From Propionibacterium freudenreichii subsp. freudenreichii (lineage in GTDB: Bacteria > Actinomycetota > Actinomycetes > Propionibacteriales > Propionibacteriaceae), in assembly GCF_000940845.1 (NCBI RefSeq), contig NZ_CP010341.1, positions 1,830,001 through 1,862,000 of the forward strand: 32,000 nt of DNA, given 5' to 3'. A program made the position numbers and the translations under genes. Positions 10,878 to 28,930 of this stretch are shown piece by piece. Position 1 is the stretch's first letter; each line of letters begins with the position of its first letter. The notes beneath the pieces were generated by a model that was given only the letters and a program-made list of their open reading frames with translations, was not told the DNA's origin and did no database searches.

Positions 10878-11582
10878 ATGCACGTTATCGGGGTCCAGCG
10901 GGTGGACAAGGCGCCTGTTGTTCGCCTACCCGTGGGGCATGGCGAGGATCCCCGTGTGTTGCTGTGGCATCGCGGCTGGGTCGTCTCGCGCTGGCTGTCC
11001 GCCACCGGAGCGGACGAGGAGCTCGTGGTCACGGCGCAGGTGCGACAGCGCACGGCCACTTCACGCACGCCCCGTCGCCGCGGGCACCGGCAGGATCCCG
11101 ACCTGGTGGTGGCGCCCGGAGAAGTGCCCACCAAGCGTCAGCGCGTTGCCGCCTACGCGATCGTGCGCTCACATCGCGGGTTGCTCGGCACGATCTGCAG
11201 CGATCGCACAGCCGTGCCCGGACGTTGGCAGCTGCCCGGAGGGGGTCTGGAGGCCTCCGAGACGTCAAGCCAGGCGGTGATCCGCGAGGTGCGCGAGGAG
11301 ACCGACCAGTCGGTGGCGCTGCGTCGCCTTGTCGACCTGCAGTCCGACCACTGGGTGGGACGCGCCCCGAACGGTCGGCTGGAGGACTTCCAGGCCATCC
11401 GCATCATCTATACGGCGGTCTGCACGGCCCCCACCGAGCCCGAGGTGCTCGACGTGGGCGGCACCACTGAGGCATCGCACTGGGTGTCGCTGCGGGGCTG
11501 GCGTTCGCTGCCCTGGACGTCCAGTGCCCGCTCCGCCCTCGACCGACACGTGGACGAACTCAGCGGCCTGTTCGCGCGCTGA
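10878..11582 (+). CDS. NUDIX hydrolase with an ~85-aa N-terminal extension
   Basis: The Nudix box is GGGLEASETSSQAVIREVREETDQ (GX5EX7REUXEEXGU). The ATG at 10878 follows GGTGGG. The start is not certain. Confidence 0.8.
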   Translation: MHVIGVQRVDKAPVVRLPVGHGEDPRVLLWHRGWVVSRWLSATGADEELVVTAQVRQRTATSRTPRRRGHRQDPDLVVAPGEVPTKRQRVAAYAIVRSHRGLLGTICSDRTAVPGRWQLPGGGLEASETSSQAVIREVREETDQSVALRRLVDLQSDHWVGRAPNGRLEDFQAIRIIYTAVCTAPTEPEVLDVGGTTEASHWVSLRGWRSLPWTSSARSALDRHVDELSGLFAR

Positions 11583-11667
11583 TCGGCCACGCCGACGCCG
11601 CTGCTCGCGCGTCGCGGCGCATCACCCTGCGCCGGTTTCCCGCAACGCACGCGTCCCCGAACGCTCG

Positions 11668-11701
11668 CATCCCGCCGTCCCCTGTCGGGATCGGCGGGAT
11701 G
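11668..11701. terminator. Strong hairpin between the convergent NUDIX and BI-1 genes
   Basis: The outer stem catcccgccg / cggcgggatg is 10 bp. An inner tccc/ggga stem with a 1-nt bulge extends it, around the 5-nt loop ctgtc. There is no T-tract on either strand. Confidence 0.45.
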
Positions 11702-11756
11702 TGCAGCAAGCAGGTGGGCATGCAGTCCGCGAGGACCGTGGGGGGTCGGCGCGTGA

Positions 11757-12569
11757 TCAGTTACGGAAGAAGCTCAGGATGCGCAACAGGTTGGTGTACA
11801 GCCACACCATGGTGACCATCAGGCCGAATCCGGCCCGCCACGATTCCTTGGCCGGCGCGCCCATGCGGACGCCCCGTTCGCATTCCTCGAAGTCCATGAG
11901 CAGGCTCGCCACGGCCAGCACCACGCCGATGGCGGCGAACAGCCAGCTGAGGGCACCCGCGCCGGCACCGATGTTGAAGAAGCCCAGATTCACCCCGAAC
12001 AGCAGGGCGATCAGGTTGATGCCGGCCACCACCGCGTAGCCGATGATCGAGAAGATGAAGATCTTCTGCATGCGGCCGCTGATGCGGGCGCCGAAGGTGC
12101 GGTAGGCGAACAGCGTGACGGCCGCGGCAGCGAAGGTGCCCAGCACGGCCTGGCCCACGATGCCGGGGTAGATGCTCTCCATCACCTGGCTGAATGCCCC
12201 GATGAGGATGCCCTCGAACACGGTGTAGGCCATGATCGCGGGCACCGAGGTGCTGCGACGCACGGTCACCAGGATGGCGGCGACCAGGGCGATCACCGAT
12301 GACCCGAGAGCCAGGGGCAGGGCCATCGCCGGGTTGACGGCGGTGAACATCCAGGCGGCCGCGGCCACTGCCACGAGGATCACGAACAGCGTGGCGGTCT
12401 TGGCGATCACATCGTTCATCGTCATGCGGGCCGCGGGCCGCGACGGGCCCGGGTATCCGCCGGGCGGATAGGACGCCTCCTGATACGCCGCGTCGACGTA
12501 CTGCTGACCCGCTTGGCCAGCGGGGACGAAGGCGTCCGGCCTGGTCAGTACTGGGTTGCTGCTTCGCAC
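11757..12569 (-). CDS. Bax inhibitor-1/YccA family membrane protein
   Basis: The GTG at 12569 lies 6 nt after GGAG. The N-terminus (SSNPVLTRPDAF) is followed by 7 TM helices and the C-terminus YTNLLRILSFFRN, which is typical of BI-1 family proteins. Confidence 0.85.
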   Translation of the reverse strand: MRSSNPVLTRPDAFVPAGQAGQQYVDAAYQEASYPPGGYPGPSRPAARMTMNDVIAKTATLFVILVAVAAAAWMFTAVNPAMALPLALGSSVIALVAAILVTVRRSTSVPAIMAYTVFEGILIGAFSQVMESIYPGIVGQAVLGTFAAAAVTLFAYRTFGARISGRMQKIFIFSIIGYAVVAGINLIALLFGVNLGFFNIGAGAGALSWLFAAIGVVLAVASLLMDFEECERGVRMGAPAKESWRAGFGLMVTMVWLYTNLLRILSFFRN

Positions 12570-12705
12570 CTGTGCTCCGATCTGAGAAATGGGCCCGACA
12601 GGGCCGGGTCGATCCCACCAAGGCTACCCAGTGGCCCTTCGGCGGCCAATGATGAGCCGGCCCGGCTCACACCCAACTGTCCCTGATTTCGCCGTCATCC
12701 GGTGA

Positions 12706-13455
12706 TCAGCGCCGGGCGTCGATCAGGTGTCGCGAGGAGTGGTCGACGAAGGACCTTCCGGCGCGTAGTTGCGCGTCGAGGCACACCAGTTGGTCGTGAT
12801 ACTTGTCCGGCGAGAAGTCAGGCACCCACCAGGGGCACTTGCGCAGGATCCAGACGATGGCCCCGATGTCGAAGTACTCGATGCGCAGGGTCGCGGTGAG
12901 CAGGGACTCGATGTGGAGTCCGGCGGCCTGCGCCTGTGCCGCTTCGACATGCGGGTCGCGGCGCTTCCGGTTCTCCGGCAGCGGGCCGAGGAAATACTCG
13001 ATGAGCTCGAACGACGAGGCCGGCCCCACGTGCTGGGCGAAGTAGTGGCCGCCGGGTTCCAGCACCCGCGCGATGTCGCGCCAGTCCGGCTTCACCGGAT
13101 GGCGGGAGGTCACCAGGTCGAAGCTGGCGTCGTCGAAGGGCAACGGATCATCCCCGGTGGTCTGCACGACCCTGACGCCGCGGGGCCCCAGCAGCTTCCG
13201 GGCGCGCTCCGCATTCGGCGGCCAGGATTCGGTGACCACCATCGTCGGTGGCAGCTGCGGGGCCTCGTTGACCACCTCTCCCCCGCCGGTGTCGATGTCC
13301 AGCGCGGCGTGTGCTCGGGCCAGTCGGCCCGCCAGCAGGCGTGCATATCCCCAGGGCGGACGCTCCTCGGTGGCGCGACCGTCGAGGAAGCCGAATCCCC
13401 ACCCGGTGATATCGGCACTCTGGGCTTCGGCAACCAGCTCAGCAAAGGGCCGCAT
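12706..13455 (-). CDS. Class I SAM-dependent methyltransferase
   Basis: I chose the ATG at 13455 (MRPFAELVAEAQ...). Motif I is ALDIDTGGGE, and the acidic loop VVVTESWPPN and DASFDLVTSRH are also present. The longer ORF reaching 13572 adds only Arg/Pro-rich sequence. Confidence 0.75.
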   Translation of the reverse strand: MRPFAELVAEAQSADITGWGFGFLDGRATEERPPWGYARLLAGRLARAHAALDIDTGGGEVVNEAPQLPPTMVVTESWPPNAERARKLLGPRGVRVVQTTGDDPLPFDDASFDLVTSRHPVKPDWRDIARVLEPGGHYFAQHVGPASSFELIEYFLGPLPENRKRRDPHVEAAQAQAAGLHIESLLTATLRIEYFDIGAIVWILRKCPWWVPDFSPDKYHDQLVCLDAQLRAGRSFVDHSSRHLIDARR

Positions 13456-13461
13456 CAGGTC

Positions 13462-13467
13462 ATTATC
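13462..13467 (-). promoter_or_regulatory. Candidate -10 box GATAAT, 6 nt upstream of the ATG (leaderless geometry)
   Basis: The minus strand reads ...GGGGGCGATAATGACCTG ATG. No Shine-Dalgarno sequence is present. Confidence 0.35.
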
Positions 13468-13757
13468 GCCCCCGGACGGCCATGGCGGTCGCGTCGCGCT
13501 GCGAGGCGGGCACCCGGTGATCGCGCTGGGCTTATCGACTCGTGGACGCAAAACCCTTGCCGCGTAAGGCACCGACGCGCAAAACTAGCAGGAGTTACGT
13601 GTTGCCGGCACTCACACCGGCCCGGACATTGCGACGCGCCTGCCTGCGCTCGTCGATGGTCGGCCACATTGGTCCGCCAGGTACCCGGGCCGGGCAGGAC
13701 GTGACGCCAAGCGACCGGGTCTCCCCCACCCCGGCCCCACCGCATCGGGAGGAACCA

Positions 13758-14531
13758 ATGAGCAAGCGACCGCACACCATCCTGGTTGTCGGAGCCACGG
13801 GAAGCGTCGGCCGCTTCGTGGTGGCCGAGGCCCTCAAGCAGGGCTATGCCACCCGAGCGTTGGTGCGCAACCTTGACAAGGCGAAGACCCTGCCCGAGGG
13901 TGCGCTGGCCGTGGTGGGCGACCTGACCGACGCCGCCACGCTAGACCGGGCACTTGCCGGAACCGACGCGGTGGTGTTCACCCACGGTTCGAACAGCACC
14001 GAGGAGCAGGCCGAGGCCGTCGACTACGGCGCGGTGCGCTCGGTGCTCACCGCCCTGGGCGATCGTTCGGTGCGGGTCGCCCTGATGACCGCGATCGGCA
14101 TGACCAAGCGCGACAGCATCTACAACAAGGAGAACCACGGACGCGACTGGAAGCGCCGCGGGGAGCGTCTGCTGCGCGCCAGCGGCCTCGAGTACACGAT
14201 CGTGCGTCCGGCCGCCTTCGACTACAACGCCCCCGACGCCCACAAGCTCGTGATGCGCCAGGGCGAGCACCCGAGCAATGGCGGCGTGGCCCGCGAGCAG
14301 ATCGCCCGCGTGCTGGTGGACGCCCTGAGCAACGACGCGGCGCGTCACAAGACCTTCGAATTGCTCGACACCACCGGCGAGGAGCAGGCCGACCTGACGC
14401 CCCTGTTCGCAGCACTGCAGCCCGATGAGCCGGCGGCGGCCGACGCGCCGGGCGACTCCGAGAACCTGCCCCTGTCCGATGAGCCGCAGCGCGTACTCGA
14501 CGACCTGAAGCGCCTCACCGACTACGAATAG
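13758..14531 (+). CDS. NAD(P)H-binding protein (NmrA-like / atypical SDR)
   Basis: The ATG at 13758 follows GGGAGGAACCA. The Rossmann motif ILVVGATGSVGRFV sits at the extreme N-terminus, and the overall pattern is that of the NAD(P)-binding domain family. Confidence 0.8.
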   Translation: MSKRPHTILVVGATGSVGRFVVAEALKQGYATRALVRNLDKAKTLPEGALAVVGDLTDAATLDRALAGTDAVVFTHGSNSTEEQAEAVDYGAVRSVLTALGDRSVRVALMTAIGMTKRDSIYNKENHGRDWKRRGERLLRASGLEYTIVRPAAFDYNAPDAHKLVMRQGEHPSNGGVAREQIARVLVDALSNDAARHKTFELLDTTGEEQADLTPLFAALQPDEPAAADAPGDSENLPLSDEPQRVLDDLKRLTDYE

Positions 14532-14582
14532 GCCGGCGCCTGTGGGCCGGCATCTGCCCGGCTCTGCCGACCAAGAACACCC

Positions 14583-14614
14583 GTGAAGCCGACGTCCCCG
14601 GACGTCGGCTTCAC
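14583..14614 (+). terminator. Intrinsic terminator hairpin (14-bp perfect stem, 4-nt loop)
   Basis: The sequence gtgaagccgacgtc-cccg-gacgtcggcttcac is followed by GTTTCAAG. It lies 52 nt after the SDR-like gene stop. Confidence 0.65.
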
Positions 14615-14747
14615 GTTTCAAGCATGTAACAACTGGATCGCGGCTCTTTCGTGCGCCCCACCGGGCCACTAGCGTTTGCTCGTTGCACGCACACCCCATC
14701 TGTCCGCGTCGGGTTCCCGGCGTTCCACGTACGAGGAGGGCTGAGCC

Positions 14748-16211
14748 ATGAACACGTCAGATCGCACTGCATCACCCCACGCGAACCCGCCAGCCCCCTC
14801 AGACGACGGCAAGGCGTCCCCGGCGCTGAAGCAGGTGATGGGGCCCGGACTGCTGTTGTTGTTCGTGGTGGGCGACATCCTGGGGACCGGCGTCTACGCC
14901 CTGACCGGGCAGGTGGCCGGCGAGGTGGGAGGCGCGGCCTGGTTGCCGTTCCTGATCGCCTTCGTGATCGCCATGATGACGGCACTGTCATACCTGGAGC
15001 TGGTCACCAAGTACCCGCAGGCGGCCGGCGCGGCCCTGTATGTGCACAAGGCGTTCGGGGTGCACTTCATCACCTTCATGGTGATGTTCACCGTCATGTG
15101 TTCGGGCATCACCTCGGCCAGCACGGCATCCCGGGCGTTCGCCGTGAACATGGTGCGCGGGCTCACCGGCTCCGAGCCGGCCGACAACAACCCGTGGCTG
15201 CTGGTGGTGGCGCTGGGCTTCATTTTCCTGGTGATGCTGATCAACCTGCGCGGGGTGGCCGAGGGCGTCAAGGCCAATGTGGTGCTCACGCTCATCGAGG
15301 TGTCAGGGCTGCTGCTGGTGATCTTCATCGGCCTGTGGGCGATCACCCAGGGTCGGGCCGACTGGAGCCAGGTGGTGGCCTTCCAGACCAGCTCGGAACG
15401 CAATACGTTCGTGGCGGTGACGGCCTCAACGTCGCTGGCGTTCTTCGCGATGGTCGGTTTCGAGGATGCCGTGAACATGGCCGAGGAGACCAAGGAACCG
15501 ACGCGCATCTTCCCCCGCATCCTGCTCAGCGGGCTGACCGTCACCGGTGTGATCTATGTGGTGATCGCCATCATCTCGGTTGCCCTGGTGCCGGTGGGCA
15601 ATCTTGCCGCGAGCGAGGCGCCGCTGGTTCTCGTGGTGGAAAACGCGGCACCCGGATTCCCGATCAACCAGCTGCTGCCCTGGATCTCCATGTTCGCGGT
15701 GGCCAACTCAGCGCTCATCAATATGCTCATGGCAAGTCGCCTCATCTATGGCATGGCCCAGCAGGATGTGTTGCCGGGCGTGCTGGCGCGCGTCTTGCCG
15801 GTGCGGCGCACGCCATGGACCGCCGTATTGTTCACCACCGCGATCGCCGCCGGGCTGATCCTGTATGTGAGCCTGGCGCGCGGCAGCGCAGTGGTCGGCC
15901 TGCTCGGCGGCACCACCTCACTGCTGCTGTTGGCCGTCTTCGCCGTGGTGAACCTGGCAGTGGTGGTCTTGAAGCGCGACCGGGTGGGGCACAAGCATTT
16001 TCGCACCAGCCGGATCGTCGCGATCGTGGCCTGCCTCCTGTGCCTATTCCTCGTGCTACCGGTGTCGGGGCGTCCGATTGGCCAGTATCAGATCGCCGGG
16101 GTGCTCATCGTGATCGGCGTGGCTCTGTGGGCGGTCACGGTGGTTATCAACAAGCGTGTTGGACGCACGGAGCTGAAGCATCCCGAGGACATCCCGCCCG
16201 AAGTGATCTGA
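14748..16211 (+). CDS. APC-family amino acid (or polyamine) permease
   Basis: The ATG follows GAGGAGGGCTGAGCC. The 487-aa product has about 12 TM helices. Its N-terminal signature (GPGLLLLFVVGDILGTGVYALTG) and overall pattern are typical of APC permeases. Confidence 0.85.
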   Translation: MNTSDRTASPHANPPAPSDDGKASPALKQVMGPGLLLLFVVGDILGTGVYALTGQVAGEVGGAAWLPFLIAFVIAMMTALSYLELVTKYPQAAGAALYVHKAFGVHFITFMVMFTVMCSGITSASTASRAFAVNMVRGLTGSEPADNNPWLLVVALGFIFLVMLINLRGVAEGVKANVVLTLIEVSGLLLVIFIGLWAITQGRADWSQVVAFQTSSERNTFVAVTASTSLAFFAMVGFEDAVNMAEETKEPTRIFPRILLSGLTVTGVIYVVIAIISVALVPVGNLAASEAPLVLVVENAAPGFPINQLLPWISMFAVANSALINMLMASRLIYGMAQQDVLPGVLARVLPVRRTPWTAVLFTTAIAAGLILYVSLARGSAVVGLLGGTTSLLLLAVFAVVNLAVVVLKRDRVGHKHFRTSRIVAIVACLLCLFLVLPVSGRPIGQYQIAGVLIVIGVALWAVTVVINKRVGRTELKHPEDIPPEVI

Positions 16212-16268
16212 ACGGGATGTCCACGCCATCGTTGGCCCGACGGGCGTCGTCACCAGGTGACCAGCACC

Positions 16269-17540
16269 TCAGCCAAGCCCGTAGGCAAGCTCGGGGTGGT
16301 CGGCGGCAATCTCCAGCAGCCGGTTGTATTTGGCCACGCGCTCGCCGCGTGCCGGTGCGCCTGACTTGATGTGCCCGCACCCGGTGGCGACCGCCAGGTC
16401 GGCGATAAAGGCGTCGGGCGTCTCCCCCGAGCGGTGCGACATGAACTGCCGATAACCGGCAGCGGCGCAGATGTTCATGGCGTCGAGGGTCTCGGTGACC
16501 GTGCCGATCTGGTTCAGCTTGATCAGCGACGCATTGGCCACATGACGCTCGATGCCCTTGCGGATGAGCTCGGGGTTGGTGCAGAAGATGTCGTCGCCAA
16601 CCAGCTCCACCCGGGAGCCGAGTTCGCGGGTGAGCTGCTGCCAGCCATCCCAGTCGTCTTCAGCCAAACCGTCCTCAAGCAGCCAGACCGGGTACCCGTG
16701 GACGATGGCCTGGTAGCGCTCGATCATCTGCGCACTGGTGAAGCTGCGCCCATTGACCAGATAGCGGCCATCAGCCTGACGGAACTCCGAGGACGCCGGA
16801 TCAATGGCGATGGCCACGCCCTCGAGGCCGGGGGTATAGCCAGCGTCACCGATCGCAGCCACGATTGTGTCGAGCGCCTGCTCGGGCTCGGCGAAATCGG
16901 GCGCGAACCCACCCTCGTCGCCCAGCCCAACGGGTTGGCCAGAGTCCTTGAGGCGGGCACGCAGGGCGGAGTAGATCTCAGAGCCTGCGCGCACCGCGTC
17001 CGTCATGGAGTCCATCCCGGTCGGGCAGATCATGAACTCCTGGAAGTCGAGCGGATTAGCCGCATGGACGCCCCCATTGAGCACATTGAAACAGGGCACC
17101 GGCAGGCGGGGCGGCTGGCCTCCGATTCCCGGGAGATATTCGAACAGCTCGTTGCCGCCGCTGGCCGCAAGCGCCCTGGTGAAGGCCATGGATACCCCCA
17201 GGATTGCGTTGGCGCCGAGCCGGGACTTGTTCGGGGTTCCATCCAGGGCCAGAAGGCTCTCGTCGAGTTCGCCGACGGACTCGAAGCGGCGCCCAACAAT
17301 GGCGTCGGCAATTTCATGGGTGACGTGGTCCACTGCGGCGAGAACGCCGAGTCCGCCGAAGCGATGTGGATCGTGATCGCGCAGTTCCACGGCCTCGTGT
17401 GTGCCAGTGGAGGCACCGGAGGGGACCATCGCCCGTGCGCGTGTGCCGTCGGACAGGGACAACCTGACCATCAGGGTGGGTCGGCTGCGCGAGTCCAAGA
17501 TTTCCATCGCGTCCAGCGTGGTGATTGTTTGACGTGGCAT
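16269..17540 (-). CDS. eno: Enolase paralog (second copy; all catalytic motifs intact)
   Basis: The ATG at 17540 follows GGGAGGGCACTC. Motifs present: [80 protein letters not shown]. Confidence 0.9.
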   Translation of the reverse strand: MPRQTITTLDAMEILDSRSRPTLMVRLSLSDGTRARAMVPSGASTGTHEAVELRDHDPHRFGGLGVLAAVDHVTHEIADAIVGRRFESVGELDESLLALDGTPNKSRLGANAILGVSMAFTRALAASGGNELFEYLPGIGGQPPRLPVPCFNVLNGGVHAANPLDFQEFMICPTGMDSMTDAVRAGSEIYSALRARLKDSGQPVGLGDEGGFAPDFAEPEQALDTIVAAIGDAGYTPGLEGVAIAIDPASSEFRQADGRYLVNGRSFTSAQMIERYQAIVHGYPVWLLEDGLAEDDWDGWQQLTRELGSRVELVGDDIFCTNPELIRKGIERHVANASLIKLNQIGTVTETLDAMNICAAAGYRQFMSHRSGETPDAFIADLAVATGCGHIKSGAPARGERVAKYNRLLEIAADHPELAYGLG

Positions 17541-17830
17541 GAGTGCCCTCCCGCGTGCTCGCGGACGGCCATGCGCATCGCGTGCCTGCTCGATGCGGGA
17601 TGCCCATGTCCATCCCTTGATTCAACGAACAGGAACTATCAGCAGGTCTGCGGTTCGGGCTCTTATGCCCCGGCGGGTCCCATCGCCGTTTTCAGGATAG
17701 TCCCGCGCATGTGCCCTGGAGCTTCTGATCGCGTGAAAGATTCCACCTCGCGCCTCTAATCATCGGGGAAGGCCGTGTGCCGTCGATGACGCTGCCGACA
17801 CCCACCAGCTGTTCCTGGTGTCTGCTCGCC

Positions 17831-18430
17831 TCAGGCCCTCTGCGCGAACTCCGACCAACCTGCCTCCAGGCGAGCCATGATGGCGTCAAGATCGGCCCGT
17901 GAGGCGTCCATGTCCGTGGCCGCGAGATCGGGGATCTGGAGCACGATGCGGGCCAGGGCGCGGATCACGGCGTCCTCCGGTCGCCCCACGATCCCGGCCA
18001 GCAGGGTGGTGAGCCCGGGCTCGCAGCGCTCCCACCGTTCCTTGGCGTAGGCGCGCAGCGGCGGAGCCTCGACCACCCGGCGCACGAAGGCCGATTGCGT
18101 GCCCGAGAAGGCACCGCGGTCACGGAAGAACTGGTGCAGGGCGTCCAGCACGCTCTGCCCGTCGGCCCGCGATTCGACGGCGGTAATGATCGACTGCATC
18201 CTCTCGTCGGCAGAGTCGACGTTGTCACCGAAGATCACGGCGTTCTTGCCGTCTGGGAAGTGTTTGAACAGCGTTGTCACTGCGGTATCGGCTTCCTCGG
18301 CGATGTCGACAACGGTGACAGCCTCATAGCCGCGCGCGAGCACCAGCCTGCGCGCGGCGGCGGTGAGCGCCGACGAGGTGGCGGCCTTCTTGCGTTCGCG
18401 ACGTCCCTGGCGTTCCGCTGTCTGACTCAT
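17831..18430 (-). CDS. TetR/AcrR-family transcriptional regulator (divergent from the MFS gene)
   Basis: The HTH region reads RRERKKAATSSALTAAARRLVLARGYEAVTVVDIAEEADTAVTTLFKHFPDGKNAV. I chose the ATG at 18430. An alternative in-frame ATG at 18469 would add 13 aa. Confidence 0.8.
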   Translation of the reverse strand: MSQTAERQGRRERKKAATSSALTAAARRLVLARGYEAVTVVDIAEEADTAVTTLFKHFPDGKNAVIFGDNVDSADERMQSIITAVESRADGQSVLDALHQFFRDRGAFSGTQSAFVRRVVEAPPLRAYAKERWERCEPGLTTLLAGIVGRPEDAVIRALARIVLQIPDLAATDMDASRADLDAIMARLEAGWSEFAQRA

Positions 18431-18436
18431 GGCCTC

Positions 18437-18487
18437 AGTGTACAGATCACGTTTGTGTAGCTCCTCCATTTATGTAGTGATTACACT
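18437..18487. promoter_or_regulatory. Candidate operator half-sites (gapped inverted repeat) in the TetR/MFS divergent intergenic region
   Basis: AGTGTAcagATCAC (18437-18450) and GTGATTACACT (18477-18487) are reverse complements apart from a 3-nt indel. Confidence 0.3.
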
Positions 18488-18533
18488 TTTGCAATGGCTG
18501 CGCATATGCTGTCGCTGCGAAAGGAAGTACGTC

Positions 18534-19961
18534 ATGACACAGACATTGACCGCCGTCGAGCCCACCACGAGCTCGCGGCTCGGCAGGCGCCTCTGGGCGA
18601 TCCTCGCGGTCGTCCTCATCGCGGACGCCATCGACCTGATGGATTCCACGATCATGAACATCGCAGCCCCGACGATCCAGCGCGAGATCGGCGGCGGGGA
18701 GGGCCTCATCAAGTGGCTCGGGGCCAGCTATGCGCTCGCGCTGGGCATCCTGCTCGTGGTGGGCGGGCGACTCGGCGACCGCTTCGGGCGCCGGCGGCTG
18801 TTCCTCATCGGCATCGCCGGATTCGGGGTCGCCTCGGTGTTGTGCGCGGTGGCCATCGATCCCGCGTTCCTCATTGCCGCCCGGCTGCTCCAGGGGGCCT
18901 TCGGCGCCCTGCTCATCCCGCAGGGCATCGGCATCCTCATCGCCACCTTCTCCCGTGAGCAGTTCCCCACGGCTGCCTCGATGTTCGGCCCCGTGCTCGG
19001 TGGGGCCTCGATCGTCGGCCCGATCCTGGCGGGATTCCTCGTCGGCGCCAATATCGGTGGCCTGACGTGGCGGCCCATGTTCCTCATCAACATCGTGCTG
19101 TGCGCGGCCGGGCTCATCGCCGGATGGAAGCTGTTGCCCCCGGATCGCGACCTGCAGAAGGTGTCCATCGACGGACTCGGCTCGGCACTGTTGGCAGTGG
19201 GCATGCTCGGCGTCCTGTTCGGACTCATCCAGGGCTCGACCAACGGGTGGACTGCGGTTCCCGTGATCTGCCTGGGCCTGGGTGTCGCCGGGTTCATCGG
19301 CTTCGCCCTGCGCCAACGCCTCGCGACGAATCCCCTCATCGTGCCGGCGCTGTTCCACAACCGTGGCTTCACGTCCGGGTTGCTCATCGGGCTGGGCTAC
19401 TTCGCGGTGGTCAACGGCTTCGCCTATGTGGTCTCGCTCTACTTCCAGATGCACCTGGGGCTCAGCCCGGTGGGTGCCGCGCTGGCCATGATGCCGATGA
19501 TGGTGGGCATCATCATCGCCTCCTTCGTGGCACGCCCGCTCATCCCGAAGCTGGGACGCAACCTCGTGGTGGCCGGCCTGGCCACCACCCTGGCCGGGAT
19601 CGTCGCCCTCATCGCCATCAGCATTGCGGCGGGAGACGCCACCAACCAGTGGATGCTCGCGCCGGCGATCCTCGTGCTCGGATTGGGCATGGGCGCGTCG
19701 TTCAGCAGCATCTACGACGTCGCGATCGGCGATCTCACGACGGACCTCGCCGGTAGCGCATCGGGTTCACTGTCGGCGGTGCAGCAGCTGGCCTCGGCCA
19801 TCGGCTCGGCGGTGGTCACCACGATCTACTTCCAGACCTCGGCAGCCGCCGACGCCAACCGACCCTTCATCGCCTCACTCGTCGTGGTCGGTGCCATCAC
19901 CGCCGTCTGCCTCATCGCCGCTCCCCTGCTGCCGAAGCGTGCCCCGCAGGACGCCCACTGA
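18534..19961 (+). CDS. MFS transporter, DHA2 (EmrB/QacA-like, ~14 TMS) drug:H+ antiporter family
   Basis: The ATG at 18534 follows AAAGGAAGTACGTC. The sequence LMDSTIMNIAAPTIQREIGG, motif A GGRLGDRFGRRRLFLIG, and the 475-aa length with ~14 hydrophobic segments all fit DHA2. Confidence 0.85.
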   Translation: MTQTLTAVEPTTSSRLGRRLWAILAVVLIADAIDLMDSTIMNIAAPTIQREIGGGEGLIKWLGASYALALGILLVVGGRLGDRFGRRRLFLIGIAGFGVASVLCAVAIDPAFLIAARLLQGAFGALLIPQGIGILIATFSREQFPTAASMFGPVLGGASIVGPILAGFLVGANIGGLTWRPMFLINIVLCAAGLIAGWKLLPPDRDLQKVSIDGLGSALLAVGMLGVLFGLIQGSTNGWTAVPVICLGLGVAGFIGFALRQRLATNPLIVPALFHNRGFTSGLLIGLGYFAVVNGFAYVVSLYFQMHLGLSPVGAALAMMPMMVGIIIASFVARPLIPKLGRNLVVAGLATTLAGIVALIAISIAAGDATNQWMLAPAILVLGLGMGASFSSIYDVAIGDLTTDLAGSASGSLSAVQQLASAIGSAVVTTIYFQTSAAADANRPFIASLVVVGAITAVCLIAAPLLPKRAPQDAH

Positions 19962-20014
19962 GCGGGCCGACATATCCGACAGAAAGTAGCCGGGCGCCAT
20001 CAATGAAATCACCA

Positions 20015-20037
20015 CCCCATCCCCACCCCAGCACCCC
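20015..20037 (-). other. G-quadruplex-forming motif G4-N4-G4-N1-G4-N2-G4 (C-rich on the plus strand)
   Basis: The plus strand ccccatccccaccccagcacccc corresponds to GGGGTGCTGGGGTGGGGATGGGG on the minus strand. Confidence 0.5.
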
Positions 20038-20056
20038 TCGAGTTTCCCCTCGGGAT

Positions 20057-20087
20057 TCTACGTAGTAGACTTGCTCTACGTCGTAGA
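20057..20087. promoter_or_regulatory. Two tandem 13-bp palindromic operator-like sites upstream of the ABC-2/TetR operon
   Basis: Site A is TCTACGTAGTAGA (20057-20069; 5-3-5 palindrome, also containing the perfect 8-mer CTACGTAG). Site B is TCTACGTCGTAGA (20075-20087; perfect 6-1-6 palindrome). The two 13-mers differ at a single position and start 18 bp apart. Site B overlaps a -10-like TAGAGT located 19 nt before the ATG at 20109. Confidence 0.6.
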
Positions 20088-20108
20088 GTTACGACGGATG
20101 GAGCACGA

Positions 20109-21043
20109 ATGTTGGTAGCCAAGGGAATCATCAAGTCGTATGGGAACCTCAAGGTTCTCCGCGGCGTCGATCTGTCGGTCGAGCGAGGGCAAATTCTTGG
20201 CCTCATGGGGGTGAATGGGGCGGGCAAGACGACACTGATTTCGATCCTTGCCGGACTGACGCGGCCGGATGCCGGCGACGTGCACATTGGGGGCGTGGAT
20301 CTGCTTCGTCACCGCCGCCAGGCCGCCCGGCATATCGGGGTCGCCCCACAGGCGTTGGGCATCTACCCGACCCTGACGGTGCAGGAGAACCTGGATTGCT
20401 TTGCGGGGCTGGCTGGTTACTCCGGTCGGAAGGCCCGTTCCCGGACTGCTGAGATCGCGCGGTTGATGGGTCTGCAGGATCTGCTCGACCGGCCCGCAGG
20501 TCACCTCAGCGGTGGCCAACAGCGGCGTCTGCATACCGGGATGGCGCTTCTGGGTCACCCGGACGTCTTGTTCCTGGACGAGCCGACAGTCGGCTCGGAT
20601 GTGCAATCACGCGAGGTGCTGCTCAGCATCGTCACACATATGGCGAATGAGGGCACCGCCGTGATCTATACGACGCACTACCCCGCTGAGCTTGAGCAGT
20701 TGGATGCAACCATCAACGTGCTCGTCAACGGCAGGATCACGGTGACCGGCAGTGTCCAGGAAGTCACCGGGCAGTGGGCCTCATCATCGATATTCCTTCA
20801 TTTCCGGGGCAAGACACCGCGGAAGTGGACGGGTGGAAGGAAGACCGCGGCGGACTGGTTCCAATCCGGCCGGTCAGCGATCCCGGTCAGATGCTCGGCC
20901 AGACATTGAGCACGCTCGGGGCTGCTGCGGGCGGTCTGGACGATGTACGCATCACCCGTCCCAGCCTCGAGGCGGCGTATCTGGCGATCACGGGCGACCA
21001 TGCGCTTGCGGAAAAGGAGGCCAGCGATGTCGTTGCTGCCTAG
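20109..21043 (+). pseudogene. ABC transporter ATP-binding protein (DrrA-like, ABC-2 type), apparently frameshifted near 20780-20790
   Basis: Frame 0 (20109 onward) encodes Walker A GVNGAGKTT, the signature LSGGQQRRL, Walker B VLFLDEPT, and the H-loop TTHY. After ...VQEVTGQWASS it degenerates into basic junk up to the stop at 20909. Frame 2 (open from 20696, ending at TAG 21041-21043) encodes the expected C-terminal domain ...IIDIPSFPGQDTAEVDGW...VRITRPSLEAAYLAITG and overlaps the permease start as usual. Confidence 0.6.
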
Positions 21044-21800
21044 CATGTCGATTGCCAGAACTACCTGGAGGCTGCAGCTGCGCGATCCTGGGTCGTCAGT
21101 AATCATGACCCTCCTGCCGCTCATCCTCGTGCCGCTGCTGAACCCCAGCGCGAAGGCACAGCTGATCCTGTCCGGATATCCGAACGCCAGCGGTGCCGAG
21201 CAGACGGTGCCTGGGCTCGCCATATTGTGCGCGTTCCTGTCCGTTGAGCAGGTCACCACCTTGTTCTTCCGCGAACATGCGTGGGGAACATGGGACCGGC
21301 TGCGCGCCAGCGCGGCGTCCACTGCCGACATCGTGACAGGCAAAGTTGTTGTCCGCTTCCTGATTCAGCTCGCTCAGACTGCCATCGTCTTCGCCGTGGG
21401 TGCGCTCATCTTCGGTTACCGTCCCAACGGCTCGGTGCTCGCGATCGGTATCGTCGTGATCGTGTTCACCGCCATGCTCGTCGCCTTTGGCGTGATGCTT
21501 GTCGCGCTGTTTCGCACCATGGATCAGGCCGATACGGTCGGAATGCTCGTGGGCATGCTCCTGGCCGGCCTGGGCGGCGCCCTGGCACCTGTCGCGTCGT
21601 TCCCCGGCTGGGTGCAATCGCTGGCCCACGTCAGCCCCGCCTTCTGGGTGTTGGACGCCCTGCGCCGCCTCACCCTGGACAGCGCACACCTGACTGACGT
21701 GATGCCCGCGATAATCGGCACGCTCGCCTTTACCGCCGGGTTCGCACTGATTGCCGCCGTCAGCTTCCGCTCCAATGCCGTGAAAGTAGGCACCACATGA
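21027..21800 (+). CDS. ABC-2 type transporter permease
   Basis: The ATG at 21027 follows AAAAGGAGGCCAGCG. The 257-aa product has 6 predicted TM helices and the typical N-terminus ARTTWRLQLRDPGSSVIMTLLPLIL. It overlaps the frame-2 end of the ATPase by 17 nt. Confidence 0.8.
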   Translation: MSLLPSMSIARTTWRLQLRDPGSSVIMTLLPLILVPLLNPSAKAQLILSGYPNASGAEQTVPGLAILCAFLSVEQVTTLFFREHAWGTWDRLRASAASTADIVTGKVVVRFLIQLAQTAIVFAVGALIFGYRPNGSVLAIGIVVIVFTAMLVAFGVMLVALFRTMDQADTVGMLVGMLLAGLGGALAPVASFPGWVQSLAHVSPAFWVLDALRRLTLDSAHLTDVMPAIIGTLAFTAGFALIAAVSFRSNAVKVGTT

Positions 21801-22435
21801 GTACGAGTGGGCGTCCCATGCGCCCGACCCTGTCCCGGGACTACATCCTTCACACTGCATTGCACATCGTGGACCGTGACGGTTCCGACAAACTCACCAT
21901 GCGCCGGCTGGGCACCGAGCTTGGCGTAGATCCGATGGCCATTTACCACTATGTGCCGAACAAGGCCGCCCTGTTCGACGGCATTGCCGAGACGATCTGG
22001 TCATCGCTCGACCTGGGCGTCCCGAGCCCGGACGAAAGCTGGCAGCAGCAACTCATCGCCGCCATGCGCGCCTTGCGTGGAGTCCTGCGGGCGCACCCGA
22101 ACGCGGTCGCCCTCGTCGGCACCCGGCCCGTAACCAGCCCCGAGCTCCTAACCGTCATAGAGCAACTGCTCGGCTTTCTCACCGAGGCGGGCATGCCTGC
22201 AGACGCTGATACGGCCGATCTGCTGAGCACCCTGGTCAACTACACGATCGGCCAAGTCCTCGCAGAGGTCGGCGAGCCGGTCGGAGCAGAGTCAGCCCCA
22301 GCCAATTACCAGGCCCTGTCTCCCCAGACCCACCCACATCTGAGCGCCCTGCTGAACAACGGCTGGACTTACGATCCGGACGCCCAGTATGACCACGGTC
22401 TCAACGCCCTGCTCGCAGGCTGGCGCCAGACCTGA
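21797..22435 (+). CDS. TetR-family transcriptional regulator (last gene of the ABC-2 operon)
   Basis: The ATG overlaps the permease stop (ATGA). The HTH region reads LSRDYILHTALHIVDRDGSDKLTMRRLGTELGVDPMAIYHYVPNKAALF, and a TetR-type C-terminal domain follows. Confidence 0.85.
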   Translation: MSTSGRPMRPTLSRDYILHTALHIVDRDGSDKLTMRRLGTELGVDPMAIYHYVPNKAALFDGIAETIWSSLDLGVPSPDESWQQQLIAAMRALRGVLRAHPNAVALVGTRPVTSPELLTVIEQLLGFLTEAGMPADADTADLLSTLVNYTIGQVLAEVGEPVGAESAPANYQALSPQTHPHLSALLNNGWTYDPDAQYDHGLNALLAGWRQT

Positions 22436-22549
22436 CACCCCCACGCGAACACGGTTCCTTGCATATCCAGATCCAGGGACCCATCGGCCGCCTCAGCGAG
22501 TGCCATCTCCGGTCCAAGACCAGCGCTGGCCTCACATGTAGCGGGGTCG

Positions 22550-22622
22550 TGCCCCCAGCGGGATTCGAACCCGCACTGGAGCGGGTTTAAGCCGCCTGCC
22601 TCTGCCGTTGGGCTACGGGGGC
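22550..22622 (-). tRNA. 73-nt tRNA, anticodon UAA (nominally Leu/UUA) but with class-I architecture (5-nt variable loop); isotype uncertain
   Basis: Hand-folded cloverleaf of the reverse complement: GCCCCCG TA GCCC AACGGCAG AGGC A GGCGG CTTAAAC CCGCT CCAGT GCGGG TTCGAAT CCCGC TGGGGGC A. The T-loop is the canonical TTCGAAT. No CCA is encoded. Confidence 0.85.
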
Positions 22623-22630
22623 CCGGAAAC

Positions 22631-22636
22631 AGACTA
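22631..22636 (-). promoter_or_regulatory. Candidate -10 box TAGTCT (TANNNT), 8 nt upstream of the tRNA 5' end
   Basis: The minus strand reads ...CCGATTAGTCTGTTTCCGG|GCCCCCG. Confidence 0.3.
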
Positions 22637-22731
22637 ATCGGCGGCACCCACACGCGCGACACGAACCGGGACAACCAGGGCCAACCGGCGATTCACCGGA
22701 CCTGCCCACCAAGACGGCCCAGGCCCGTGCG

Positions 22732-23688
22732 CTAGTCGGCGCTGATCGCCTGTCCCTTGCCGTCCACCAGCATGCTCAACGCGATGCCATCGAGGATGTC
22801 GGACTCGCTCACCACGAGTTCGGGTGCCCCCACGCGGGAGGCGACCTCCTCGACGATCAGGGCCCCGGCGCACAACACCTCGGCACGCTGCGGCTGCACG
22901 GGCCCCCAGCTGACCACCTCGGACACGGTGGCACCCAGCAGCCGATCAGCCACCTCGTGCACCGCTGCCTGGCTCAACACCGAGCCGTGCACGCGCGAGC
23001 GGTCGTAGCGGCGCAGGTGCTGTGCAAGGGCGGACATGGTGGTCACGGTGCCGGCCACGCCGATGAAGGTGCGGATGTCGGACAGCTCCACCCCGCTCGA
23101 GTCGAGCTCGGAGCGCACCAACTGCCGGGCACGGGCGATCTCGTCGGCCGTGGGCGGGTCAGAGCGCAGGATGCGCTCGCGCAGTCGCCGGGAACCGATG
23201 TTGAGGCTCACCGACGCGTCGATGTGGGCCAGGTCCGCGCCCGCGCCGACGCCGCGCACCAGCTCGGTGGATCCCCCACCGGAGTCCATCACCAACACCG
23301 GGTCGGCCTTGGACCGGATGCCCGACAGGGCCCCCCGGAAACTCAGGTGCGCCTCTTCCTGCCCCGACACCACCTCGGCGTTGATGCCCAGCCGGGCGCG
23401 CACCCCACGGAACAGCTCGTCGCGGTTCTGGGCGTCGCGGGTGGCCGAGGTGGCCACGAAGCGTCCCCGCTCGCAGTCGAGGTCGGCAATGATCTCGTTG
23501 AACTGCTCGCAGGCGTCGAACGCGCGGTTGAGGGCATCGGGGGCGAACAGGCCGGTGGCGTCGACGCCCTGACCCAACCCCACGAACAACAGCCTGCGGT
23601 CGTATTCGTGCAGCGATCCATCGGGGTTGAGGCTTGCCACGAACAACCTCATCGTGTTCGTTCCGCAGTCGATCGCCGCAACCCTCAT
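22732..23688 (-). CDS. ppx: Ppx/GppA-family phosphatase (exopolyphosphatase-like)
   Basis: The N-terminus is the ASKHA-fold motif MRVAAIDCGTNTMRLFVA. Also present are ATSATRDAQN and the DSGGGSTE phosphate loop. The start overlaps the stop of the upstream DUF501 gene by 4 nt. Confidence 0.85.
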   Translation of the reverse strand: MRVAAIDCGTNTMRLFVASLNPDGSLHEYDRRLLFVGLGQGVDATGLFAPDALNRAFDACEQFNEIIADLDCERGRFVATSATRDAQNRDELFRGVRARLGINAEVVSGQEEAHLSFRGALSGIRSKADPVLVMDSGGGSTELVRGVGAGADLAHIDASVSLNIGSRRLRERILRSDPPTADEIARARQLVRSELDSSGVELSDIRTFIGVAGTVTTMSALAQHLRRYDRSRVHGSVLSQAAVHEVADRLLGATVSEVVSWGPVQPQRAEVLCAGALIVEEVASRVGAPELVVSESDILDGIALSMLVDGKGQAISAD

Positions 23689-24200: not shown

Positions 24201-24279
24201 TCTCCAATTGTGGCACGACCGAAAAACGGCATGCGCCGGACGGAGCTCGCCTCGGGTCCGCGACGCGGCGGTGGGCCGG

Positions 24280-24921
24280 TCAGCCTCCGCTGGTTGGCGC
24301 GGCGCTGGGTCCCACGACCCGTTCGATCCGACTCGGCGTCGGCGTCTCGGTGGGCTTGTCAGCGCTCTTGTTGCTGTCCCATGCGCGCTGCCACCACGCC
24401 TCTGCCTGCTGTGCCCCGACGCCGGTGCGGTCGATCTTGGCCCCGCCGCCGTAGGGGTCGCCGTTGGCATCCACCACCTGGTAGCCGGTCTCGCCGGGCA
24501 TCACCCAGCCGAGCCTGCTGCGCGCCTGGGCCCGCACATAGTCCGGGTCGTTCCAGCGCTGCTGCTCGTTGTCAAGCTGGCTGATGTGCTCCTGGCTGGA
24601 CGCGATGGCCGCCCTGGCCTGGGATATCTGCTGGCGCTGGTCGACGTAGACCCGCAGGCTGGTGATCAGCGAGATGATCAGCACCGCCACGATCGCCAGG
24701 ACGGCGGCCAACCGCCGGGTCATGCGGGCGCCGGTGCGGGCGACCGGGCCGGTTGCCTCGTTGCCCGACTCGTCGCCCTCGGCACCCGAGCTCGTCTGGG
24801 TCTCCAGGCGGGCGCGTTCATGCGAGCTGCGACGCGAGGTGCGCGCTGCGGTGCGGGTGCTGGGGGTGTCGCCCGCCGAGGGGGGCGCACTGCGGCGCCG
24901 GCTGGAACGGGACGAGACCAT
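24280..24921 (-). CDS. Septum formation initiator family protein (FtsB/DivIC-like)
   Basis: A single TM segment (LAAVLAIVAVLIISLITSL) is followed by a coiled coil (RVYVDQRQQISQARAAIASSQEHISQLDNEQQRWNDPDYVRAQARSRLGWVMPGE). The N-terminal region is basic and disordered. The start is uncertain (ATG at 24921 chosen; other in-frame starts exist up to 25029). Confidence 0.75.
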   Translation of the reverse strand: MVSSRSSRRRSAPPSAGDTPSTRTAARTSRRSSHERARLETQTSSGAEGDESGNEATGPVARTGARMTRRLAAVLAIVAVLIISLITSLRVYVDQRQQISQARAAIASSQEHISQLDNEQQRWNDPDYVRAQARSRLGWVMPGETGYQVVDANGDPYGGGAKIDRTGVGAQQAEAWWQRAWDSNKSADKPTETPTPSRIERVVGPSAAPTSGG

Positions 24922-25198: not shown

Positions 25199-26500
<1,302 letters not shown>

Positions 26501-27927: not shown

Positions 27928-27933
27928 CCTAGC
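27928..27933. repeat. 6-bp target-site duplication CCTAGC (left copy)
   Basis: An identical hexamer sits immediately outside each IS terminus. It fits the NCTAGN target known for IS481. Confidence 0.8.
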
Positions 27934-28930
27934 TGTACTTCCCCGTGACGTTGTGAACGCGGGCTGAGGGAGTCTGGCCGCCGATCCCGGTGTGGGGTCT
28001 GTGGTGATTGTAGTGATGGAGCCAGGTCTCGTAGGCTGCGGCGCGCTCGGCTTCGCTGGCGTAGGGCTTCGCGTAGGCCCACTCGACGGCGAGGGTTCGG
28101 TTGAACCGCTCGACCTTGCCGTTGGTCTGCGGCCGGTATGGCCGGGTCCACTTGTGCTTCACCTCGTCGCCGAGCGCGTCAGCGAAGGCGCCTGACCGGT
28201 AGCAGGAACCGTTGTCGGTCATCACCGCGGTGACTGTGACGCCCAGGCCTGCGAAGAACGCGTTCGCGCGGGTCCAGAACCCCGCTGCGGTCTCTTTGCG
28301 CTCGTCGTCAAGGATCTCTGAGTACGCGATCCGGGAGTGGTCGTCCACGGCGTGGTGCAGATACCGGTAGCCGCGAGAGCCGGCTGCCCCGGCACGGGCT
28401 GCCTTGTCGCGGGCCACTCCCGCGTGACGGTCCTGCATGGATCCGCGACCGTGGGCACGCCACCCGCCGCCGTCGGGGATCCGGCCTTGTTTCTTGATAT
28501 CTACGTGCACGAGCTGGCCCGGCGCGGCGACCTCGTACCGTGTCGGCTTCGGGCGGCGAACCGGCAGCCCGGTGGCCTGGTCGATGTTGATCAGCTTCGG
28601 CATCTTGTATCGGGCGAGCACCCGACCGACCGTGGAACGGTGCAACCGCAGGTGATACGCGATCCGGTGCGGACCCCACCGGCGAGTGAACCGCAACGCG
28701 ACGATCCGATGCTCCGTCTTACGCGAAAGCCGGTTCGGTGACGAGGTGGGCCTCGAACTACGGTCGATCAACGGCAGCCCTGCCCGGTACCTGTCGGCCC
28801 ACCGCTTCACCGTCGCGGGCGAGCACTGGAACCGTTCCGCCGCCCGCCGCAACGACCAGCCCTGTTCCACGACGAGAACAGCAAGACGACGACGCCCTTC
28901 CGGTGTCAAGGGTGCGTTAGCGTGAGTCAC
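27929..28930 (-). CDS. IS481-family DDE transposase
   Basis: The GTG at 28930 follows GGAGGTCTTC. There is an N-terminal HTH (GWSLRRAAERFQCSPATVKRWADRY). The DDE triad contexts are LVHVDIKK, AVMTDNGSCY and PQTNGKVERFNRTL. The ORF reads through the terminal IR, and its TAG (27929-27931) lies in the flanking target duplication. Confidence 0.9.
   Translation of the reverse strand: MTHANAPLTPEGRRRLAVLVVEQGWSLRRAAERFQCSPATVKRWADRYRAGLPLIDRSSRPTSSPNRLSRKTEHRIVALRFTRRWGPHRIAYHLRLHRSTVGRVLARYKMPKLINIDQATGLPVRRPKPTRYEVAAPGQLVHVDIKKQGRIPDGGGWRAHGRGSMQDRHAGVARDKAARAGAAGSRGYRYLHHAVDDHSRIAYSEILDDERKETAAGFWTRANAFFAGLGVTVTAVMTDNGSCYRSGAFADALGDEVKHKWTRPYRPQTNGKVERFNRTLAVEWAYAKPYASEAERAAAYETWLHHYNHHRPHTGIGGQTPSARVHNVTGKYS

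Follow-up and report, generated by a model that had tools for sequence, protein, structure and literature searches.

A short-armed tRNA-Leu(UAA) gene downstream of ppx in Propionibacterium freudenreichii is a UAA member of the actinobacterial type I tRNA-Leu family

Introduction

In Escherichia coli, the tRNA-Leu(UAA) encoded by leuZ is a class II molecule with a long variable arm and its gene lies in the glyW-cysT-leuZ operon. Tranfer RNAs whose anticodon and body disagree are known from Streptomyces, in which sporadically distributed mistranslating tRNAs resemble tRNAPro but carry Ala, Thr or Asn anticodons and have a dedicated ProRS paralogue. The closest described system is that of Streptomyces coelicolor, which contains four class II leucine tRNAs, including bldA with the UAA anticodon, together with one type I tRNALeu(CAA) whose variable loop is A44-C45-A46-G47-C48 (PMC6614811). 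A single leucyl-tRNA synthetase, ScoLeuRS, charges both types, and leucylation of the type I tRNALeu(CAA) was shown to need the U8:A14 pair and the 5-nt variable loop, A73 being dispensable (PMC6614811). The type I species of S. coelicolor is no substrate for the E. coli LeuRS; the actinobacterial LeuRS owes this capacity to its leucine-specific domain, in which the C-terminally located residues L732/G733 of ScoLeuRS are needed (PMC6614811). Type I tRNA-Leu was treated as a rarity in that study (Fan et al. 2019, PMC6614811), the only one that our search for literature on bacterial class I tRNA-Leu retrieved, and a search on tRNA-Leu of P. freudenreichii found nothing relevant.

Here, a 32,000-nt stretch of P. 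freudenreichii subsp. freudenreichii (contig NZ_CP010341.1, positions 1,830,001 to 1,862,000), called the window in the following, was analysed around a tRNA gene with a UAA anticodon. A first-pass annotation of this DNA had considered the architecture of the tRNA to be at odds with bacterial tRNA-Leu and had raised deliberate mistranslation as an explanation. The gene is a UAA member of the known actinobacterial type I tRNA-Leu and is ordinary for its clade.

The tRNA gene and its cloverleaf

The gene was delimited as follows.

22550..22622, minus strand: tRNA-Leu(UAA), class I, 73 nt, with a 5-nt variable loop (ARAGORN, Rfam RF00005, covariation, synteny)

ARAGORN called a tRNA-Leu(taa) at 22549-22622 on the minus strand, and the Rfam model RF00005 matched 22550-22622 of the same strand with 53.6 bits for a gathering score of 29 (E = 5e-09). 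The match covers the model over its full length (1-71 of 71), which identifies a canonical cloverleaf tRNA. From its 5' end, the molecule reads GCCCCCG UA GCCC AACGGCAG AGGC A GGCGG CUUAAAC CCGCU and is followed, after the anticodon arm, by CCAGU GCGGG UUCGAAU CCCGC UGGGGGC A. The acceptor stem GCCCCCG/UGGGGGC contains a G7·U66 wobble and the discriminator is A73, while the D stem is made of three Watson-Crick pairs and a C13·A22 mismatch. The anticodon stem GGCGG/CCGCU, with G27·U43, carries the loop C-U-UAA-A-C and places the anticodon U34 A35 A36 at window positions 22589-22587. Finally, the variable loop is CCAGU, 5 nt, and the T stem is GCGGG/CCCGC. ARAGORN, the Rfam model and the sequence itself thus agree on the clean 73-nt cloverleaf, the UAA anticodon and the arms that had been described by hand folding.

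The long variable arm of canonical class II tRNA-Leu, a stem-loop of more than 10 nt, is absent from this molecule of 73 nt only. The earlier assignment to class I, unlike the textbook class II bacterial tRNA-Leu, was therefore right, the 5-nt variable loop being directly visible. On the other side, the features of a type I tRNA-Leu are all there: a leucine anticodon, UAA, combined with a 5-nt loop instead of the long arm, the U8:A14 pair, G18G19, a nucleotide 48, which is U48, and A73. The loop includes A46-G47-U48.

The minimum free energy fold of the single sequence is not a cloverleaf (z = -2.2), as is usual for GC-rich tRNAs, and it is superseded as structural evidence by the covariance model and by covariation. 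ARAGORN also reported an 83-nt tRNA-Pro(tgg) at 24261-24343 on the plus strand. This call lies antisense within the DivIC/DUF501 coding region, recurs in all strains and gave no Rfam signal even at E <= 1; it was rejected as a false positive.

Linkage to ppx in related genomes

The upstream neighbour of the tRNA served as the anchor for synteny.

22732..23688, minus strand: ppx, Ppx/GppA phosphatase (Pfam PF02541, E = 9e-53)

The protein encoded at 22732-23688 (minus strand) is 100% identical to P. freudenreichii Ppx. In eight out of eight related loci, ARAGORN found a short tRNA-Leu(taa) on the same strand 12-81 nt after ppx. These loci came from P. australiense, Acidipropionibacterium virtanenii, Cutibacterium equinum, Luteococcus sp. 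and three metagenomic contigs. In the same way, no ppx cluster devoid of an adjacent tRNA was found in 14 loci from strains and sister species. The orthologues in the ppx loci measure 73-74 nt, are 84-91% identical and display compensatory stem changes; for the seven distinct ppx-linked genes, the mean identity is 84%. Where their anticodon and T stems differ, the changes compensate each other, as for instance in Cutibacterium with GACGG/CCGUC and UACGGG/CCCGU(A).

Distribution of the family and covariation

A one-genome-per-species collection was scanned with a degenerate pattern that specified only the generic residues of the D loop, YAA in the anticodon loop, NNAGN as a variable loop of 5 nt, and GTTCGA; all stems were left free. 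The scan returned at least 120 class I genes, with 97 UAA and 23 CAA genes among the matches listed. The actinobacterial matches listed cover most orders of the phylum and belong to Propionibacteriales, Micrococcales, Mycobacteriales (Nocardia, Gordonia, Corynebacterium, and Mycobacterium for CAA), Pseudonocardiales, Geodermatophilales, Streptosporangiales, Frankiales and Actinomycetales as well as to Acidimicrobiia and Rubrobacteraceae. Metagenome-assembled genomes (MAGs) from other phyla were also present among the matches listed, namely Planctomycetota, Rokubacteria/Methylomirabilia, Verrucomicrobiales and Armatimonadota (Chthonomonadales, Abditibacteriaceae). No Streptomyces genome was among the matches listed.

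The CAA genes, found in Mycobacterium, Micromonospora, Pseudonocardia and others, plainly form one sequence family with the UAA genes. Their genomic location is distinct, the CAA paralogue being found in a locus composed of pyruvate kinase (pyk), the tRNA, an ANTAR response regulator and a liv transporter. Among the matches listed, ppx was found at most 4.5 kb upstream and on the same strand in 28 of the 97 UAA loci versus none of the 23 CAA loci, and the ppx synteny of the UAA loci extends as far as Acidimicrobiia. In addition, four non-actinobacterial MAGs (Rokubacteria, Methylomirabilia, a Deltaproteobacteria MAG and Planctomycetota) carry the class I Leu(UAA) gene within a Gly-Cys-Leu or Cys-Leu cluster.

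ARAGORN recognized a short tRNA in 128/128 family members analysed. The D arm GUAGCCCAA(N)GGCAGAGGCA is nearly invariant in these matches, the D stem being unconstrained by the pattern. At positions that the pattern left free, the 115 distinct sequences among the matches listed show A73, C13·A22 and C12-G23 in 100% of cases and U48 in 97%; their stems are 92-100% paired, with three to five pair types at most positions. In an alignment of 12 diverse members, 98.3% of cells were paired and 16 of 20 pairs had changed on both sides. None of 500 shuffles did as well and slid alignments reached 37-50% pairing. The cloverleaf is far beyond chance.

Such a conserved, syntenic and covarying family points to an old, vertically inherited housekeeping gene. 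The view that the architecture is anomalous for the clade is not supported, since the same build is common to the Propionibacteriaceae loci and to at least 120 matches. The first-pass annotation had itself named the contrary outcome, an ordinary and conserved Leu(UAA) isoacceptor of the clade, and this is what distribution and synteny reveal.

Transcription

A promoter-like element precedes the gene.

22631..22636, minus strand: TAGTCT, a -10-like TANNNT box and putative tRNA promoter, 8 nt before tRNA position 1 (sequence)

The TANNNT box that had been noticed 8 nt upstream is indeed read as TAGTCT at 22636-22631 on the minus strand; the two P. freudenreichii haplotypes and P. australiense all retain it. 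A TANNNT ends 6-10 nt upstream of the tRNA in 32 of the 103 distinct UAA loci analysed, versus about 1.2 per position elsewhere. A strict sigma-70 promoter scan of 22300-22900 found nothing, nor did a scan of the same interval for intrinsic terminators. Transcription of the gene on its own, as had been suggested, thus receives some support from the enrichment and conservation of the box but none from the strict scan; the idea of an own promoter is based on the TANNNT enrichment. In genera with an interval of just 12-22 nt between ppx and the tRNA, no TANNNT box was seen and co-transcription with ppx is likely.

Codon usage and identity of the tRNA

With genes called by GC3 bias, the window contains a single TTA in about 8,650 codons, or 1/826 leucine codons, and the earlier statement that UUA is very rare is correct there. 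One of the few TTA-containing genes is that of the AI-2E transporter, with TTA at codon 155 of the ORF counted from its first start codon. What UUA means was addressed in 106 loci with a class I tRNA(UAA), in which conserved ORFs were aligned to homologues from other loci and the majority residue in homologues was scored for each codon, a noisy test that includes some shadow ORFs. For 170 TTA sites, the majority residue was Leu in 67%, Val in 9%, Ala in 7% and Phe in 2%. The other five leucine codons gave Leu in 63-73% in the same test, and the control codons TTC and TTT gave Phe in 54% and 41%, respectively. TTA sites match the other leucine codons and hence UUA is leucine in genomes carrying the class I tRNA(UAA). 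The test tells what UUA stands for, but does not single out the tRNA that reads it. The former opinion that the amino acid is not deducible from the sequence was too pessimistic, yet it is not formally overturned.

Taken together, we consider it very probable that the gene is the housekeeping tRNA-Leu(UAA) of P. freudenreichii, of class I and orthologous to the ppx-downstream gene across Actinomycetota. It would be transcribed from its own upstream TANNNT promoter or by read-through from ppx. CCA would be added post-transcriptionally, because it is not encoded by the P. freudenreichii gene; in the family as analysed, CCA is encoded in 27/129 genes. By analogy with S. coelicolor tRNALeu(CAA) and in agreement with the codon test, the single LeuRS, whose gene leuS lies outside the window, would leucylate the tRNA through U8:A14 and the 5-nt variable loop. 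The charged tRNA would insert leucine at the very rare UUA and, through wobble at U34, possibly also at UUG. UUG accounts for about 10% of leucine codons, and the UAA tRNA would have to read it too if P. freudenreichii had no Leu(CAA) gene.

A UAA anticodon where TTA is very rare, as in the window, is also what characterizes bldA. A bldA-like regulatory tRNA would carry leucine and its abundance would limit translation of TTA-containing genes as a switch, a role for which both the extreme rarity of TTA and the putative own promoter could be invoked. It is nevertheless improbable: the developmental role of bldA is probably limited to Streptomycineae, outside of which TTA shows no positional bias and is found in conserved growth genes (Chater & Chandra, PMC4255298). 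Moreover, the tRNA is equally conserved in lower-GC actinobacteria that use TTA freely, as the 170 sites indicate, and bldA itself is class II.

Far less credible is an identity-mismatched tRNA that would insert a residue other than leucine at UUA, in other words deliberate mistranslation. Phenylalanine would be the most plausible residue, as A35, A36 and A73 are common to tRNA-Phe and are determinants for PheRS in the E. coli identity sets. A mismatch in general could invoke the missing long variable arm expected of a bacterial tRNA-Leu. Mischarging with phenylalanine was rejected on the codon-site test, in which Phe accounts for 2% of TTA sites, and TTA sites with 67% Leu cannot be distinguished from other leucine codons. 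The G3·U70 pair is absent, position 3-70 being C3-G70, and there is no U35 for recognition of the Lys, Gln, Glu or Tyr type. A mismatched tRNA would be sporadically distributed with a linked aaRS paralogue, and its codon would stand for another amino acid. On the contrary, the gene is conserved and syntenic phylum-wide, no aaRS paralogue lies next door, the neighbours being ppx and TetR/ABC-2 genes, and the codon is leucine. A type I tRNA-Leu of similar build is in fact leucylated by an actinobacterial LeuRS (PMC6614811). With ppx synteny, no synthetase as neighbour and TTA sites that are leucine, the mistranslation proposed by the first-pass annotation is unsupported.

The strain-variable 3' flank

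The tRNA is present in 6/6 complete P. freudenreichii genomes. A second allele, found in cassette-free strains, differs by G7A and C72U, with both pairs kept. The region on the 3' side of the tRNA gene is organized as follows.

About 19974..22544, no strand: strain-variable cassette of 2,571 nt, starting 5 nt past the tRNA 3' end (Pfam)
21797-22435, plus strand: TetR, in the cassette (Pfam)
20943-21800, plus strand: ABC-2 permease, in the cassette (Pfam)
20109-20909, plus strand: ABC ATPase, in the cassette (Pfam)
12570..19973, no strand: remainder of the species-specific block (Pfam; Rfam fluoride riboswitch)
10878..12569, no strand: NUDIX and BaxI, ancestral downstream neighbours of the tRNA, in the order and orientation of the related loci L005, L006 and L007
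11757-12569, minus strand: BaxI (Pfam PF12811)
10878-11582, plus strand: NUDIX (Pfam PF00293)

The TetR/ABC-2 cassette was present in four of the six P. freudenreichii genomes. In the other two, L134 and L137, its place is occupied by a 68-nt segment with a hairpin and then a T run. Up to 5 nt beyond the tRNA, the haplotypes share 99.8% identity, and they rejoin at the 3' end of the MFS gene. Haplotype comparison thus sets the synteny and indel boundary 5 nt past the tRNA and bears out the earlier observation that the gene sits exactly at a junction. The lower GC of the cassette side, also reported before, is real but modest: GC amounts to 0.62-0.63 in the cassette itself and to 0.62-0.65 at 20-22 kb, versus 0.70-0.72 at 22.5-25 kb.

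The remainder of the block, 12570..19973, encodes an MFS protein, a TetR, a second enolase with a fluoride riboswitch that controls it, an amino-acid permease, an NAD-binding protein and a methyltransferase. In Cutibacterium, in Luteococcus and in the MAG L007, the next genes after the tRNA are BaxI and NUDIX, and in P. australiense one glyoxalase gene separates the tRNA from BaxI/NUDIX. As they adjoin the tRNA in relatives, about 10 kb have been interposed in P. freudenreichii. No integrase was found in the inserted block. An att duplication was sought with the 3' 27 nt of the tRNA, allowing up to 3 mismatches, and was rejected as no second copy occurs anywhere in the window.

In L004, a metagenomic Acidipropionibacterium-like locus, the orthologous tRNA directly borders an element that encodes a serine recombinase and a T4SS coupling protein, so the site is a general insertion target, as tRNA genes usually are. 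The 3' flank of the tRNA is a hot spot at which accessory DNA is inserted and deleted, as is common for tRNA genes, and recombination at the tRNA 3' end explains the strain-variable TetR/ABC-2 cassette. That the tRNA was itself acquired horizontally, as part of the lower-GC cassette or of a mobile element, can practically be dismissed: it does adjoin a strain-variable cassette, phages do carry similar tRNAs and a recombinase/T4SS element does adjoin the orthologue in L004, but the tRNA occurs in 6/6 strains with or without the cassette, elements use it as a target and do not bring it, its ppx linkage is kept in every related genus and, at the breakpoint, it is found on the conserved side.

Significance of class I tRNA-Leu(UAA)

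For the window itself, the finding has little weight, as the gene encodes a normal UUA leucine tRNA that annotation pipelines already call tRNA-Leu. The broader pattern may be of interest to specialists of tRNAs and synthetases. Far from being peculiar to Streptomyces, the short-armed tRNA-Leu(UAA) occurs throughout the phylum, keeps its synteny with ppx out to Acidimicrobiia, and occupies a leuZ-equivalent position in other phyla. Type I tRNA-Leu therefore appears to be far more widespread than PMC6614811 suggests. From this wide spread of class I tRNA-Leu(UAA) it follows that many bacterial LeuRS must accept class I substrates, and the large natural sequence set, with its invariant A73 and C13·A22 and its A46-G47-U48 loop, can be used to study how LeuRS accepts class I. 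The invariant C13·A22 together with A46-G47-U48 may constitute the core feature that replaces the long arm.

A more tentative idea, to which we would give slightly less than even weight, is that class I represents the ancestral form and alone decodes UUA in the whole of Actinomycetota and in several further phyla (Planctomycetota, Rokubacteria/Methylomirabilota, Verrucomicrobiota, Armatimonadota). If true, whole phyla would escape the textbook rule by which all bacterial tRNA-Leu belong to class II, the class II bldA of Streptomyces would be a derived exception, and LeuRS recognition of class I tRNA-Leu would be widespread instead of a Streptomyces peculiarity.

Comparison with known systems

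The P. freudenreichii tRNA is most readily compared to the S. coelicolor type I tRNALeu(CAA), with which it shares a leucine anticodon, a 5-nt loop, U8:A14, G18G19, A73 and a single LeuRS. The variable loops are ACAGC in the S. coelicolor tRNALeu(CAA), CCAGU in P. freudenreichii and ACAGU in Luteococcus. The likeness is judged from these common traits and from the CAA members of other actinobacteria. The two differ by the anticodon, UAA in P. freudenreichii, and by the locus, which is downstream of ppx while the CAA members lie in the order pyk, tRNA, ANTAR regulator, liv. Moreover, the UAA isoacceptor of S. coelicolor is class II whereas that of P. freudenreichii is class I. With this isoacceptor, bldA of Streptomyces, the P. 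freudenreichii tRNA has in common the UAA anticodon, the rare codon and a high-GC actinobacterial host. However, the variable arm of bldA measures 17 nt and its G19 is missing (PMC6614811), and its demonstrated developmental regulation is probably confined to Streptomycineae (PMC4255298).

E. coli leuZ fulfils the same decoding role, and non-actinobacterial class I Leu(UAA) genes are found in the equivalent Gly-Cys-Leu position. It differs by its long arm, and the E. coli LeuRS fails on the S. coelicolor type I tRNA (PMC6614811). Animal mitochondrial tRNA-Leu(UUR) is likewise class I with a UAA anticodon and is recognized partly via U8:A14 (PMC6614811). Nevertheless, it belongs to an unrelated lineage, has a dedicated mitochondrial LeuRS and is not charged by ScoLeuRS (PMC6614811).

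Homologues of 73-75 nt with about 80% identity are also carried by large actinophages and were annotated by their depositors as tRNA-Leu(taa/gag/caa), for instance Leu(taa) in Streptomyces phage CeilingFan and Leu(gag) and Leu(caa) in Mycobacterium phage Bonray. The architecture is thus already treated as tRNA-Leu in routine annotation. The CeilingFan Leu(UAA) and the Bonray Leu(GAG) share the GCCCAA-GGCAGAGG D-arm core, C13·A22, a loop ending in AGU and A73, and in the Bonray CAA copy the D-arm and loop signature is weaker. The phage copies differ in being phage-borne, in lying in tRNA clusters and in having further anticodons. Finally, the mismatched tRNAs of Streptomyces display a superficial likeness only, in that anticodon and expected architecture seem to disagree. 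Unlike them, the P. freudenreichii gene is phylum-wide, syntenic with ppx and without a synthetase neighbour, and its codon is leucine.

Alleles and neighbours of the tRNA in P. freudenreichii

Within P. freudenreichii, the class-I (short variable loop) tRNA-Leu(UAA) exists as a second allele, which is carried at 11067-11139 by two genomes, L134 and L137. It differs by G7A, which turns a G·U pair into A-U, and by C72U, which turns G-C into G·U, so that pairing in the acceptor stem is preserved by both changes. The tRNA is adjoined by a cassette that is present or absent depending on the strain, and that starts 5 nt past the tRNA.

Window about 19974-22544, 2,571 nt: cassette of TetR, ABC-2 permease and ABC ATPase genes

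The cassette occupies 11145-13715 in the genome L133, whereas in strains devoid of it, as in L134 (11145-11212), a 68-nt segment that contains a hairpin and, after it, a run of T stands in its place. The haplotypes with and without the cassette share only 91-95% identity in a stretch of 250 nt lying upstream of the breakpoint, whereas ppx does not differ between them. In a metagenomic Acidipropionibacterium-like contig (L004, 2514-8501), genes for a serine recombinase and a TraG/T4SS coupling protein were found directly after the orthologous tRNA-Leu(UAA), and this region looks like an integrative conjugative element that uses the tRNA as attachment site.

Fluoride riboswitch and second enolase

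Window 17623-17696, minus strand: fluoride riboswitch (Rfam RF01734, 36.7 bits)
Window 16269-17540, minus strand: second enolase gene, in the species-specific block
Window 25199-26488, minus strand: housekeeping eno, in the conserved mfd-mazG-eno-divIC-DUF501-ppx cluster

The riboswitch lies immediately upstream of the second enolase gene. Enolase is among the gene classes known to be associated with fluoride riboswitches, and the second enolase is probably a spare enzyme induced by fluoride.

Other features of the window

Window 27929-28972, minus strand: IS481-family transposase (domains rve, HTH and LZ_Tnp_IS481)

This insertion separates mfd from the mazG cluster and is absent from that site in the six further P. 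freudenreichii genomes that were compared, of which L132 harbours a similar transposase at a different place in the block. Among the called genes of the window, a single in-frame TTA was observed; it lies in an AI-2E family transporter ORF (2135-4165, minus strand) and is codon 155 when numbering begins at the first start codon of the called ORF. An 83-nt "tRNA-Pro(tgg)" called by ARAGORN at 24261-24343 (plus strand) is a false positive that recurs in every strain; the call lies antisense within the DivIC/DUF501 coding region, and Rfam gives it no signal at E <= 1.

Class-I tRNA-Leu in phages and other bacteria

L129, Streptomyces phage CeilingFan, 76768-76842: class-I tRNA-Leu(UAA)
L130, Mycobacterium phage Bonray, 31819-32054: class-II Leu(CAG), with class-I Leu(GAG) and Leu(CAA) beside it

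With a class-I tRNA-Leu(UAA) of their own, Streptomyces phages of about 130 kb could be independent of the developmentally regulated bldA of the host. Given the class-I Leu(GAG) and Leu(CAA) of Bonray, phages therefore use the class-I build for further Leu anticodons.

Across Actinomycetota, a separate conserved set of genes surrounds the class-I tRNA-Leu(CAA) paralogue (L046 4469-8000, L097, L115 and nine other CAA loci), in the order pyruvate kinase, tRNA, ANTAR response regulator and branched-chain amino-acid ABC transporter, the PdtaR-like regulator being divergently transcribed. In an Abditibacteriaceae MAG contig (L041, 10-3120), an 18-gene tRNA array inside 3 kb includes Leu(UAG) and Leu(CAA), both of class-I length (73 nt), and it may be mobile or phage-derived.

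Finally, tRNA-Cys precedes class-I tRNA-Leu(UAA) in Rokubacteria (L037), Methylomirabilia (L113), a Deltaproteobacteria MAG (L057) and a Planctomycetota MAG (L035). In the first two, the gene order is tRNA-Gly, tRNA-Cys and class-I tRNA-Leu(UAA), which mirrors the glyW-cysT-leuZ operon of E. coli, whose leuZ is class II.
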